Source: Escherichia coli
GTDB lineage: Bacteria > Pseudomonadota > Gammaproteobacteria > Enterobacterales > Enterobacteriaceae
Assembly: GCF_030013205.1 (NCBI RefSeq)
Contig: NZ_CP122648.1
Direction: 5' to 3' (one strand)
Length of the DNA stretch: 64,000 bases
The position numbers and the translations under genes are program-made. The notes beneath the pieces are model-generated. The model had not been told where the DNA came from and searched no databases. It was given only the letters and a program-made list of their open reading frames with translations. Of the stretch, positions 15,558-26,050 are shown piece after piece (the stretch's first letter is position 1; the number at the start of each line of letters is the position of its first letter).

Positions 15558-15718
15558 AATTCAAGTTTTCATGCTTATCTGTACGTCTCTATTTGTTTAC
15601 GATTCAGTAAGTTAGCGTGAAAATCCTTCCCGGTGCGTATCTGGTTTTCTCTCTGTATCGGGATAATTTGGTGGTCAGATCTGGGGTCAGTTTGGTTCGA
15701 TTCTGGAGTGACCCCCAA

Positions 15719-16980
15719 ATGTCTTTAAACGATTCTAAAATCCGCAAGTTAAAACCCTCTTCCCGTCCGGTAAAACTCTCCGACTCTCACGGTCTGTATC
15801 TGCTCGTCAATCCGGGCGGTTCACGCATCTGGTATCTCAAATATCGTTTCAACGGAAAAGAATCCAGAGTCAGTCTTGGCGCATACCCGCTTGTCTCACT
15901 GGCAGAAGCCAGGCAACAGCGCGACGGTATCCGTAAGTTACTGGCGCAGAATATCAACCCGGCGCAGCAGCGCATGGCGGAGAAAGCGGCCTGCTCCCCT
16001 GAAAAGTGCTTTAAGGCAGTGGCGCTGGCCTGGCACAAAACCAACAAAAAATGGTCGGCTGATTATGCCGCCCGTATTCTCGCCAGTATGGAAAACCATA
16101 TCTTCCCGGCGATTGGTCATCTGCCAGTTGCCACTCTTAAAACGCAGGATTTACTGCTTTGTTGCGGGTTATCGAGGATAAAGGCTTTCTGGAAGTCGCG
16201 TCCCGAACCCGGCAGCAACTCAGCAACATCATGCGCTATGCCGTTCAGCAGGGGCTTACCGAAAGCAATCCGGCGCAGCATCTGGATGGCGTTGTCGCCT
16301 CACCCGTAAAGAATCACTACCCCGCGTTACTGCTGGAGCGGTTGCCCGAACTGCTTGGCCGCATCGGTGACTATCAGCAGGGCCGGGAGTTAACACGGCT
16401 GGCGGTGGTGCTGACGTTGCACCTGTTTATCCGTTCCAGCGAACTGCGTTTCGCCCGCTGGAGCGAGATCGATTTCAGGCACAAAATCTGGACCATCCCC
16501 GCCACCCGCGAGGCAATCGACAAAGTACGGTTTTCGGGGCGTGGCGCAAAAATACGTACCCCGCATATCGTGCCGCTCTCCCGCCAGGCGATTGCCATTC
16601 TGAAACAGATACAGGAGCTTTCCGGCCATCTGGATCTGGTGTTTCCCGGTGATCATAACCCGTACAAGCCAATGAGTGAAAACACCACCAACCGGGCGCT
16701 ACGCCTGATGGGGTATGATACGAAAACTGAAATCTGCGGGCATGGACTCAGGGCGATGGCCTGTAGCGCCCTGGTGGAGTCGGAGCTGTGGTCACGCGAT
16801 ACGGTGGAGCGGCAAATGAGCCACCAGGAGCGTAACAGCGTGCGGGCAGCCTATGTGCATAAAGCGGAGCATCTGGAGGCCAGAAAGGCCATGATGCAGT
16901 GGTGGTCGGATTATCTGGATGTGTGCCGCGAGGGGTATGTTGCGCCGTACATTTATGCCCGGCAGCATAAGGCAGCCTGA
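15719..16980 (+). pseudogene. P4-type tyrosine integrase, frameshifted
   Basis: Two overlapping ORFs in different frames (15617-16309, 16159-16980) that together span one integrase (MSLNDSKIRKLKP... / ...RHHGLQ-like catalytic C-terminus); frame breaks near 16155-16165. Confidence 0.8.
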
Positions 16981-17119
16981 ATCAGAAATAACGGAAATCA
17001 TTAAAAATGTAAAAGCAGATCCTGATTGACCGGGATCTGCTTATTGTATTGAGAAGTATTACCATTTTTCTGTTATTATCAATCGGAAAGTATCTAAAAA
17101 TATTTGGCCCCAAATAATT

Positions 17120-17560
17120 TTGGTGAAAACCAATCAATAAACCATTTATCAATAGGTAAGTACCGGAAATTATTCCAGTAGAATATTTTCAGGCGATTGC
17201 CTATTAATAAATACATTATTGATAGATAAGTGCCTTCTGTGATTTGTCCGCAAATCACAGAAGATGAAAACCTATCAATACGGGATATTTTCACGGAAAT
17301 ACCAATTAATACTCCAGAATATCTCCTGACCATATACTCTGAAACCTGTAAGAACTGCATCAGATATTGAGAGACCATATAGATATAAGTCTGAAATTAT
17401 TTTGTTTCCAATGATTTCAGGCGAAAACCTATCAATGCATCTGTTTTCAATAGGCAGCCACCTTCCGTGATTAACATGTTAATCACGGAAGGTGAAAAGC
17501 TATCAATAATCGATATTTTCACGGAATTACCACTTAATACATCCCAAAAAATGCGCCATA
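17120..17560. repeat. two tandem ~220 bp units, each with a long palindrome, in AT-rich non-coding DNA
   Basis: Palindromes cttctgtgatttgtccgcaaatcacagaag (~17234-17263) and ccttccgtgattaacatgttaatcacggaagg (~17457-17488), each followed by gaaaa(c/g)ctatcaata...gatattttcacggaa. Confidence 0.5.
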
Positions 17561-18317
17561 AAATACCGGGCAATCTTTCCTGATACACATTATCACTGCA
17601 CCAGCTATACAGAGACAAAATAATCTGCACCAGCCCCTGTAAATCGGTTATTTGTGCCAGTGTCCCGCCGCTCTACCTGTTCAGGGTTGTGCCAGTTTCT
17701 GGCCCTTTGGTTTTCGGCCCTTTCCGGTCAGGCGCTGTTACCCTTATTGCCCCTTAACCTTTATGACCCTTTCCCTTTCTGACGCAACCAGTTTATTTTG
17801 AAATGCTCCATGACAGTCTGCACCAGACTGTATTTTCACCACAGGATAACGATCACAAAGTGCAAAAAAATAACATGAAGCACCAAAGATTGTTAATCTA
17901 TATGTAGCAGGTAATGATGTCAAAAACTGTCGCAGCATTTTTTATAAAATTATGAGACATTCTGTGGGCATATAATATATGTCACAAGATGCAGGAAAAC
18001 AAAGAGAGAGTTTTCAGATATAATCCTGCGTTAGAATTAATGTGATGCCCCGGTGAATTTACATTTTAAAATTTCCCTGTCCCGTAATATCGGTAAAAAC
18101 GATTGAAACACCAGCTATTAATCGGGAACGTCTCGAGTGATTACAGGGTAATCACTATAATATCCCGGCAAACTATATTGGTTAAGCAGGAGAATCTGAT
18201 CAGTTGATATTTATTCGTCATGCTGTAACGATATTTTCACAATATAAACCCGTTCGCCCCCTGCGCCAGATCCGGTACAGAGGGTACGATAAATCGCTGT
18301 CGTTACGCAGTAACGTA

Positions 18318-24000: not shown

Positions 24001-25012
24001 CCTGACGGGGTTGATGTCGCTGTCGCGTAAACCGGAGGAGACATGGTACGGGTGGGACGGCGACAGGCTGACGACGGTGCAGACTGACACCACGCGTATC
24101 CAGACGGTGTACCAGCCGGGAAGCTTCACGCCGCTCATCAGAATCGAAACAGACGTGACCGAACTGGAGAAAGCGCAGCGGCGAAGCCTGGCGGAGAAGT
24201 TACAGCAGGAAGGGAGTAAAGATGGTCACGGCGTGGTGTTCCCGCCTGAACTGGTGCGGCTGCTGGACAGGCTGGAGGGGGAAATCCGGGCAGACCGTGT
24301 GAGTGACGAAAGCCGGGCGTGGCTTGCGCAGTGCGGGCTGACGGTGGAGCGGCTGGCGGCACAGATCGAGCCAGTTTATTTGCCTGAGCGAAAAATACAT
24401 CTTTATCACTGCGACCACCGGGGACTGCCGCTGGCGCTTATCAGTACTGAAGGTGCAACGGAATGGCGTGAGGAGTATGACGAGTGGGGGAATCAGCTTA
24501 ATGAGGAGAACCCGCATCATCTGTTCCAGCCATACCGCCTGCCGGGGCAGCAGTACGATGATGAATCGGGGCTGTGCTATAATCGTTATCGTTACTACGA
24601 GCCGTTACAAGGGAGGTATATTACACAGGACCCGATTGGGTTAAATGGGGGGTGGAATTTATATAAATATCCGCTGAATCCAATAAATTATGCAGATCCT
24701 CTTGGCTTAGCCGTAGATATAAACCACTTCCCAGTCAACGAAGACATACGAAATTATGCAGAGAAAGTTTGGAATAATCCTAATATCATTACAATTGGAA
24801 CACATGGTGATCCTCAATCAGTATATGATGAAAATTATAATAAGATAGATGTCAAGACATTAGCTAATGAGGTTCGAAATCATCCTAAATTTAAACCTGG
24901 AATGTCAGTAAGACTGTTATCCTGTAATACAGGAAAAGGAAATAACTCTTTTGCACAGCAATTGGCAGATGAACTAGGTGTGAGAGTCTATGCTCCTGAC
25001 CAATATGACTGA
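21020..25012 (+). CDS. Rhs-family polymorphic toxin: conserved core with YD repeats plus variable C-terminal toxin tip
   Basis: 1330 aa; [11 protein letters not shown]... Rhs N-terminus, many YD repeats, core-end motif [27 protein letters not shown], then an AT-rich divergent tip; TGA at 25010-25012 is followed by 38 in-frame sense codons to TAG 25127-25129. Confidence 0.9.
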
Positions 25013-25131
25013 TACTATTCAAATGGTAAGGTAGAGCCTTGGGGAGGATTCTATGATGCAAACAATCAATTGCAAATGGACACGAATCAGCCTGGACATG
25101 AGTTTACATTCAAGCGAAGGAAACCATAGGT

Positions 25132-25746
25132 ATGAGGTATTTTCTCTTTATATTTATAACAATCCCCCTTATCTCTGGAGGTCATATGAGTAATGATAGC
25201 GAAAAGATAATATCAACATATTCGCTCAATTTTTTATCACCAGATGATGTGAGGAAAGAAGAACTTAAGGCATCACAAGGTGATAGTGATGCTGCATTTA
25301 AATTGTACAAATATTACCTTTTTTGCGAGCCAAAATCATACAGAAAACAGCACGAATGGTTAATAATATCGGCAAATAATGGAAATGCTATAGCTCAATA
25401 TAACTTATCAAGAGAACTTGAGTCAGAAGGAAAAGTAGATGAATCAATACAATGGCTGAAAAAATCAGCGGAACATGGTAATAATTATGCACAATATCAG
25501 ATGTCAAAATATTTATTAAAAATAGGTGATATTAGAGGATCGGAATATTATCTAAACTTATCTGCGGATAACGGATGTGTATTTGCAATAAAAGATATTA
25601 TCAAAAATATGATGGATAGTGGAAGGTACGATGACGCCCTCATTTGGGTTGAAAAATTGAAAAAATTGTATCCTGACACAAATACCGAACTTTACATACA
25701 AAAAATAACGCAGAAAAAAAGCAATCCAAATAATAATTATATATAA
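25132..25746 (+). CDS. putative Rhs immunity protein (Sel1/TPR-like repeats)
   Basis: AT-rich 204 aa ORF starting 3 nt after the downstream in-frame TAG; repeated A-x-Y-x-(L/M)-S motifs; position typical for rhsI. Confidence 0.55.
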   Translation: MRYFLFIFITIPLISGGHMSNDSEKIISTYSLNFLSPDDVRKEELKASQGDSDAAFKLYKYYLFCEPKSYRKQHEWLIISANNGNAIAQYNLSRELESEGKVDESIQWLKKSAEHGNNYAQYQMSKYLLKIGDIRGSEYYLNLSADNGCVFAIKDIIKNMMDSGRYDDALIWVEKLKKLYPDTNTELYIQKITQKKSNPNNNYI

Positions 25747-26020
25747 TTACTCGCACAGAGTTACAGTATTGCAAGAAATATATCTAGCATATAAAGTCGC
25801 CGCCAGTAAAGATAAAGTACTGTGTAATCCTTCCTCCCATATAGGGGTAAAAACTTAGCATCCAGTGCCCTCGACTTAATTTTTAGTATTTTCTCTGTGA
25901 AGTGACACTTCGTAGGATTCAGTTCATGTTTACCAGAAAAAAGGTGGTCATTCTGGTGGTCTTGATAATCTCGATTTTTTGTTTTAGCTTTCCAATCAGC
26001 CAATTAATGGCTACGGCGAT

Positions 26021-26050
26021 CCCAGTCAGAGGAGCCAAATTTTAGTTTTG
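26021..26050 (+). repeat. attR-like direct repeat of the tRNA-Asn 3' end
   Basis: ccagtcagaggagccaaatt(t)ta(g)gtttt versus asnW 3' end ccagtcagaggagccaaattcaagtttt. Confidence 0.65.

Follow-up and report, generated by a model that had tools for sequence, protein, structure and literature searches.

A decayed Rhs-bearing islet at the asnW tRNA-Asn gene of Escherichia coli, related to the HPI and pks integration systems

The 64,000-nt stretch of Escherichia coli DNA analysed here (contig NZ_CP122648.1, hereafter the window) contains four tRNA-Asn genes, asnV (11250, minus strand), asnU (13658, minus), asnW (15482, plus) and asnT (37842, minus). Together with the RefSeq annotation, this gives the order nac-cbl-asnU-yeeO-asnW-[insert]-yeeN-amn-shiA...yeeJ-asnT-mtfA-serU, and the insert between asnW and yeeN is the subject of this report. 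Its GC content swings from 33% to 64%. From left to right it consists of a P4-type integrase pseudogene, an AT-rich stretch without annotated gene, the remnant of a second tyrosine-recombinase-like gene, two small genes and a Ner-like regulator accompanied by RNA motifs, an Rhs gene with a Sel1/TPR-repeat gene downstream, and a short non-coding arm that precedes yeeN. All these features are listed in Table 1.

An unoccupied yeeO-asnW-yeeN site was found in E. coli strain CMZE027 (L002). It aligns to the window up to position 15569 and resumes at position 26022 with an overlap of 28 bp, giving an insert of 10,480 bp. The two ends correspond to a 28-bp direct repeat, CCAGTCAGAGGAGCCAAATTCAAGTTTT on the left and CCAGTCAGAGGAGCCAAATTTTAGTTTT on the right, which are identical at 26 of 28 positions. 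The first 20 bp are exact and form the core CCAGTCAGAGGAGCCAAATT, 16 bp of which are the 3' end of the tRNA gene. The right tail of the repeat matches the empty site while the left tail does not, as would result from strand exchange within the shared core. In the window, a pattern search detected this 20-mer five times, once in each asn tRNA gene and once at the right border of the island; 100 shuffles gave no match, and none is expected by chance. An earlier reading of these data made from the sequence alone (the sequence-only reading) had proposed that the segment is a site-specific insertion that starts with an integrase gene and ends with an imperfect copy, of about 30 bp, of the tRNA 3' end. 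The first two points are borne out by the empty-site alignment, by the integrase pseudogene that adjoins the end of asnW and, as described below, by the patchy distribution of the segment and the existence of intact alleles elsewhere. As for the third, precise alignment does recover an imperfect repeat of that size, but to call it a copy of the tRNA 3' end goes a little far, since tRNA sequence accounts for 16 nt only.

Table 1. Features of the asnW insert and location of related islets. Positions refer to the window; L numbers are handles of the loci used for comparison.
Feature	Position	Strand	Evidence or remark
asnW, tRNA-Asn (GTT), integration target	15482-15557	+	ARAGORN; intact, identical to the empty-site copy
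attL direct repeat	15542-15569	+	core CCAGTCAGAGGAGCCAAATT, then 8 island-derived bp CAAGTTTT; empty-site alignment, pattern search
P4-type tyrosine integrase pseudogene	15719-16980	+	NCBIfam PRK09692; 1-bp deletion near 16152
Paralogous 131-nt units	17182-17312 and 17410-17540	.	AT-rich stretch without annotated gene; fold z-scores -4.8 to -6.4
Second tyrosine-recombinase-like gene, remnant	18344-18935	-	comparison with intact relatives
EFASI small-RNA motif	18991-19118	-	Rfam, 100.8 bits against a gathering score of 51.2; full-length
52-aa hypothetical open reading frame	19203-19361	+	intact (WP_000301065.1); no family match
Ner/SfsB-like helix-turn-helix regulator	19786-20040	-	NCBIfam NF007670; PHROG transcriptional repressor
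153-aa conserved backbone protein	20037-20498	-	intact; predicted four-helix bundle
C4-type antisense RNA	20552-20640	-	Rfam C4, 62.2 bits against 45
a1/b1 target-like element (c4-a1b1)	20685-20737	-	Rfam, 43.8 bits, just below the gathering score of 46.7
Rhs core protein gene	21020-25129	+	NCBIfam RHS_core; frame stops at 25010-25012, old frame readable to 25129
Sel1/TPR-repeat protein, presumed cognate immunity gene	25186-25746	+	linked to the toxin tip
Conserved 84-bp right arm of the attachment site	25938-26021	+	two GGTGGTC repeats, palindrome AGCCAATTAATGGCT
attR direct repeat	26022-26049	+	20-bp core, then native post-tRNA sequence TTAGTTTT; empty-site alignment, pattern search
Related islets at asnT			strains NC22, NIPH17_0036, OkiPb01706, F2_81 (L013), ETEC1717 (L004, L006, L007, L013, L014)
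Related islet at asnU			O121 FWSEC0006 (L009)
Related islets at asnV			strains 22AR0118 (L003), LF82 (L015)
Islets at asnW			window, strains N3, 1190, CREC-544 (L005, L008, L010)

Comparison with relatives established that the insert is heavily damaged. The integrase gene is frameshifted by a single-base deletion, and intact alleles were found in strain 1190 (WP_000055678.1), in O121:H19 FWSEC0006 (WP_000055677.1) and, as a more distant relative, in F2_81. The intact product of strain 1190 displays 71% amino acid identity with the integrases of both the pks island (colibactin) and the high-pathogenicity island (HPI, yersiniabactin) of Enterobacteriaceae over its full length (416-417 aa), and the gene starts 162 nt past the tRNA gene, as the pks island integrase does. 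The second recombinase-like gene encodes, when intact, a product of 294 aa with Phage_int_SAM_2 and Integrase_1 domains (Pfam, on the O121 allele); in the window, deletions of 194 bp and 99 bp have occurred in it at microhomologies of 9 and 13 bp, respectively, and it carries a frameshift. In the Ner-like regulator, the TGG codon of W63 has become a stop (19852-19854), leaving 62 of 84 aa when compared to strains 1190 and CREC-544. An invariant Trp of the Rhs tip has likewise been replaced by the stop codon shown in Table 1, with the loss of the last 38 toxin residues. Two more lesions had escaped the sequence-only reading: a 72-bp in-frame deletion at ca. 22013 in the Rhs core, associated with a 10-bp microhomology, and a 1-bp deletion in an A-tract near 25713 of the Sel1/TPR gene that alters the last few residues of the product. 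That reading had otherwise recorded the integrase frameshift and the regulator nonsense codon, and had suspected the one in the Rhs tip, all of which are seen against relatives. The integrase-domain protein that it described as truncated is indeed broken, but by two internal deletions and a frameshift rather than by simple truncation. Its view that nearly every gene is broken is fair, the intact features of the island being the 153-aa and 52-aa open reading frames and two RNA motifs, and the search for intact versions that it had recommended was successful in that each broken gene is intact in some other strain.

These lesions are nested across strains. In strain 1190, the 194-bp deletion is the sole lesion shared with the window, and a frameshift in the 153-aa gene is private to that strain; in strain N3, the frameshift of the integrase, the 99-bp deletion and the stop codon of the regulator are present in addition; finally, the ETEC lineage to which the window belongs adds the Rhs and immunity lesions. 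Such nesting indicates that mobility and backbone functions decayed first and the cargo last, and it provides a clean, small-scale record of island domestication in which mobility genes were lost first, followed by the toxin, with the immunity gene retained for the longest time. Three integrase-killing mutations were found in three lineages, the frameshift common to the window and N3, a stop at Gln177 and a stop at Gln370 in CREC-544, so that the gene has been inactivated independently at least three times.

The cargo is an Rhs gene whose product matches the RHS_core equivalog NF041261 with 2484 bits (cut-off of 2000) as well as TIGR03696. Its N-terminus has a clear DUF6531 domain and a weak PAAR-like match (E 0.23), and the core ends in ...YADPLGL (DPxGL), after which the variable tip begins. 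At the DNA level, the core is ca. 80% identical to RhsA, RhsB and RhsC, and GC content drops along the gene, being ca. 60% for the core, 40% for the tip and 33-35% downstream. The tip belongs to a rare family with nine homologues, in which a His...Cys pair is conserved: Cys72 (LLSCNTG) is invariant in 8 of 8 sequences, and all 7 that extend over the relevant part have an HG pair. Its structural model has a predicted local distance difference test score (pLDDT) of 94, and the best Foldseek matches (3gcd, 3pa8 and caspases) are modest, with an E value of 7e-4 and a template-modelling score of ca. 0.45; among the structural matches are the cysteine protease domains of MARTX and TcdB, caspases, legumain and CHAT. 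That the tip may be a caspase-like (clan CD) cysteine protease is a guess supported by this model and by the conserved residues. In 91 genomes, the Sel1/TPR gene accompanies this toxin tip without exception, and the product of that gene is presumed to be the cognate immunity protein. Delivery of the toxin may depend on a type VI secretion system.

Over 12.5 kb, the region is 100% identical to the chromosome of the porcine E. coli strain ETEC4067, and 75 of 5,426 complete E. coli genomes hold at least 80% of this 12.5-kb query; presence of the 10 kb with intact genes at asnW in essentially all E. coli would have spoken against the proposed insertion, and this is not what was seen. The 84-bp right arm has a broader distribution, being found in 390 of the 5,426 genomes, at 497 places and up to four times per genome, and the left arm of the island occurs at a coverage of at least 80% in 269 genomes. 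Related islets, the integrase genes of which are 83-99.9% identical at the DNA level, were located next to all four asn tRNA genes (Table 1). In each case, the far end is made up of the 84-bp arm, then the core, then the native post-tRNA flank of that very locus, and such precise ends at four sites argue strongly for integrase-mediated integration and against homologous exchange. Members of the family differ in cargo. The islet of F2_81 (L013, 8882-19435) carries MazEF, a HEPN protein and a large hypothetical gene, that of LF82 (L015, 1-3107) an ATP-dependent nuclease and a UvrD-type helicase, and that of CREC-544 has HigA and extra Rhs fragments. Since the backbone travels with other cargo, the Rhs module is best seen as the cargo of a modular islet family, and islets of this kind at asn tRNA genes may be a hotspot for defence systems as well. 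Within the set of species-representative genomes, E. albertii alone yielded the exact left junction, with two occurrences; the type strain NBRC 107761 (L018, L019) has two family members, one with a full backbone and one reduced to a remnant, which extends the islet family beyond E. coli. Searches lent no support to a plasmid or phage origin of the backbone, as matches in plasmids were weak (ca. 70-75% identity) and mostly involved large Salmonella replicons, and those in phages were essentially nil.

The interpretation that best accounts for these data, and to which we give a probability of roughly 0.88, is that asnW received, at its 3' end, a 10,480-bp integrative islet with Rhs toxin cargo, which inserted by means of its own P4-type integrase and is now decaying there. 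A tyrosine recombinase, most likely that integrase, would have carried out site-specific recombination within the shared 16-20 bp core, regenerating the tRNA gene and leaving the core duplicated at the far end. The incoming element would have combined a backbone, made of the second recombinase-like gene behind an EFASI RNA and of a C4-type RNA placed before the 153-aa and Ner-like genes, with a cargo comprising a clade-I-type Rhs polymorphic toxin and its putative Sel1/TPR immunity gene. In the lineage of the window, it would then have become fixed in place; its genes have decayed stepwise, starting with the integrase-domain gene, followed by the integrase and the regulator and lastly by the toxin and immunity end.

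Several observations weigh against this interpretation or some of its parts. A 551-bp probe across the uninterrupted junction was matched at 80% or more in 5,245 of the 5,426 genomes, which favours an insertion, but this number looks too high and is to be taken as approximate because pks islands at asnW are expected to be common. No excisionase (recombination directionality factor) was recognised in the islet, and an attP-type junction, with the right arm, the core and the left arm in that order, was absent from IMG/VR viral contigs and from species-representative genomes; mobility is therefore deduced from comparative structure only, as no excised or tandem form was seen, and the searches gave no evidence of an episomal, packaged or tandem form. 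With regard to the cargo, the islet contains neither vgrG nor other type VI secretion genes, the tip has no sequence match in Pfam, PHROG or PDB and so lacks a Pfam family, and its fold match is weak by both scores given above.

A different view of how the family spreads is that a related integrase acting in trans, whether that of HPI, of pks or of an intact sibling islet, continues to carry copies with a dead integrase from one asn tRNA gene to another. The stop codon at Gln177 (GTA TAG, codon 177), together with a linked synonymous change, is common to five islets located either at asnT (L004, L006, L007 and L014) or at asnV (L003), the integrase genes of which are 98-99.9% identical, and the att ends are precise at each locus. 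Sharing of this allele by two loci points either to movement after the death of the integrase or to gene conversion between resident copies. Potential helpers are frequent, since HPI- or pks-type integrase genes (60-80% identity band), which use the same core, occur in ca. 2,100 genomes. However, mobilisation in trans presumes that integrases sharing 71% identity can stand in for one another, the elements may have different arm-type binding sites, and the missing attP junction counts against it as well. One allele could also have spread by gene conversion between two resident copies without any movement; E. coli Crooks has Rhs genes at both of the corresponding positions, the Rhs loci 7 and 8 discussed below (PMC3032704). 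Altogether, we regard movement in trans as doubtful.

RecA-dependent homologous recombination via the repeated asn tRNA genes, with the terminal repeat being incidental, is a far less probable origin of the segment. Four identical asn tRNA genes do lie within 27 kb, and they drive rearrangements, as illustrated by CREC-544, which lacks cbl-nac between two of them, and by the inversion of the region reported in pks strains (PMC8209727). Yet homologous exchange would have had 16-20 bp to work with on the right side, where the junction falls exactly at the 20-bp core behind the 84-bp arm at four loci with four different native flanks, and the islet carries an integrase of the appropriate family at the end where one would be expected. 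The least probable origin is a composite insert in which an unrelated integrase module landed alongside an Rhs gene that had settled next to asnW beforehand: other cargo does occur on the same backbone (F2_81, LF82) and identity to strain 1190 differs between the Rhs half (97%) and the left half (99.5%), but the empty site of CMZE027 lacks both the left (integrase/backbone) half and the Rhs half, no internal copy of the core with two mismatches or fewer was detected in the insert by pattern search, and an Rhs gene accompanies the backbone at asnT, asnU, asnV and asnW.

The backbone of the decayed islet has further features of its own. The two 131-nt units located past the integrase gene each contain a perfect palindrome of 13-17 bp inside an outer inverted repeat, TATTGATAG...CTATCAATA, and differences between their arms are compensated. 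They had no match in an Rfam search, and conservation of the 1.36-kb gene-free stretch in which they lie does not exceed that of the coding parts; these units could be protein-binding sites, an origin-like element or RNA. The EFASI motif is located directly upstream of the second recombinase-like gene, in agreement with the reported association of EFASI with integrase genes (PMC12370729), and its usual neighbour, STAXI, was not detected by the Rfam search. The 153-aa protein is widespread in Enterobacterales, where some annotations show it joined to an Ash-family segment, and an Ash-family open reading frame is fused or adjacent to it in relatives. It has no match in Pfam, NCBIfam or PHROG and no true phage homologue in PHROGs or in a phage genome collection; its AlphaFold model (pLDDT 76) is a generic four-helix bundle without meaningful structural match. 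Finally, the C4-type RNA and the a1/b1 target-like element immediately precede the operon of the 153-aa and Ner-like genes, an arrangement that suggests RNA-based control of this operon. A weaker isrK-like match overlaps this RNA region at 20662-20724.

Other signs of decay or rearrangement were seen in the window and in one of the compared genomes. A decayed lambdoid prophage occupies positions 38909-58800 at serU (tRNA-Ser CGA). Its integrase gene is frameshifted (ca. 39026-40076, minus strand), a DUF1482 gene is interrupted by the insertion sequence IS1, and the prophage ends abruptly past the large terminase gene, with yodB missing between it and zinT. Three prophage-borne tRNA genes are present (54037-54346), the first of which is called Met (CAT) by ARAGORN and Ile by RefSeq, the usual ambiguity for the lysidine-modified tRNA-Ile2. 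Beside asnT (30733-37400), yeeJ, which codes for an inverse autotransporter, is a pseudogene with a frameshift and without the N-terminal part, and IS1 disrupts a gene of glycosyltransferase family 9 (ca. 31650-32347). In CREC-544 (L005, 6098-8988), ldtA is followed by one tRNA-Asn gene and yeeO, with cbl and nac missing, a gap that recombination between asn tRNA genes could have produced.

When compared to known elements, the islet shares integration at tRNA-Asn, a P4-type integrase and flanking direct repeats with the EARL (ROD21-like) islands (PMC6035254). These are elements of 19-40 kb in which the integrase comes with a directionality factor, type IV pilin genes, relaxase or transfer genes and H-NS homologues (PMC6035254); membership was rejected, as no directionality factor, pilin, relaxase/transfer or H-NS gene is present among the annotated genes and open reading frames of the islet. 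Likeness to P4 and to the immI systems of P1 and P7 lies in the P4-type integrase, in a C4/CI-type processed antisense RNA with upstream target-like repeats before a small operon, and in the Ash-family open reading frame fused or adjacent in islet relatives. A P4-like satellite was rejected too, with no equivalent of the primase (alpha), sid, delta, psu or cos among the open reading frames and the PHROG and NCBIfam matches.

The Rhs gene itself resembles those of E. coli clade I (RhsA-D) in its RHS_core match, GC-rich core, AT-rich replaceable tip, presumed downstream immunity gene and lack of a linked vgrG. A point of difference is that it is found inside a bounded, integrase-bearing and att-flanked islet at asnW. 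In Salmonella, the presence of Rhs genes on tRNA-linked islands is established (SPI-6, ROD9). For E. coli, Jackson et al. (2009) listed eleven Rhs positions, including locus 7 (yeeO..cobT) and locus 8 (yodB..yeeJ), with no mention of a tRNA gene or an integrase at these two (PMC2935791), and the genome paper of E. coli W reports the same two loci in Crooks, not among its mobile elements (PMC3032704). Loci 7 and 8 match the asnU/asnV and asnT positions described here. The remark in the sequence-only reading that Rhs elements are usually not described as tRNA-integrated cargo is therefore weak in view of the Salmonella islands and of these catalogued loci, and it holds insofar as the 2009 catalogue names neither tRNA gene nor integrase; in the literature, of which coverage was incomplete, no description of these Rhs loci as integrase-bearing tRNA-Asn islets was found. 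Insertion by an integrase at asn tRNA genes offers a concrete mechanism for how some E. coli Rhs loci may have reached positions that had been listed without explanation. The gain for the history of Rhs loci is modest and does not overturn current understanding. More tentatively, the islets could form an undescribed family of small tRNA-Asn-specific integrative elements in Escherichia, which would have been the vehicle of clade I Rhs genes to loci 7 and 8, with defence and toxin-antitoxin cargo in other members, and in which copies with a dead integrase would hop among the four asn tRNA genes by means of HPI/pks-type integrases acting in trans.

The closest parallels are the pks island and HPI. 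Their integrases act at asn tRNA genes, and the 17-bp direct repeat reported there has the same sequence as the core described here (PMC8209727). Common to all three elements are insertion at the 3' end of an asn tRNA gene with the core CCAGTCAGAGGAGCCAA, the use of any of several asn genes, a P4-type integrase of ca. 420 aa with the start distance and level of identity given above, and a tendency to become fixed when the integration module decays. The islet differs from them in its size (10.5 kb versus 54 kb for pks and 30-40 kb for HPI), in a cargo that consists of a presumed Rhs toxin/immunity pair instead of a biosynthetic pathway, in a backbone made of the integrase-domain gene with EFASI, the C4 RNA, the 153-aa gene and the Ner-like gene, and in its own conserved 84-bp right arm. 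The island at asnW is thus a decayed member of a modular tRNA-Asn islet family related to the HPI and pks integration systems, and its integrase is a third lineage beside the HPI and pks integrases that uses the same tRNA-Asn core, and as such joins the group that competes for the same four tRNA-Asn sites.

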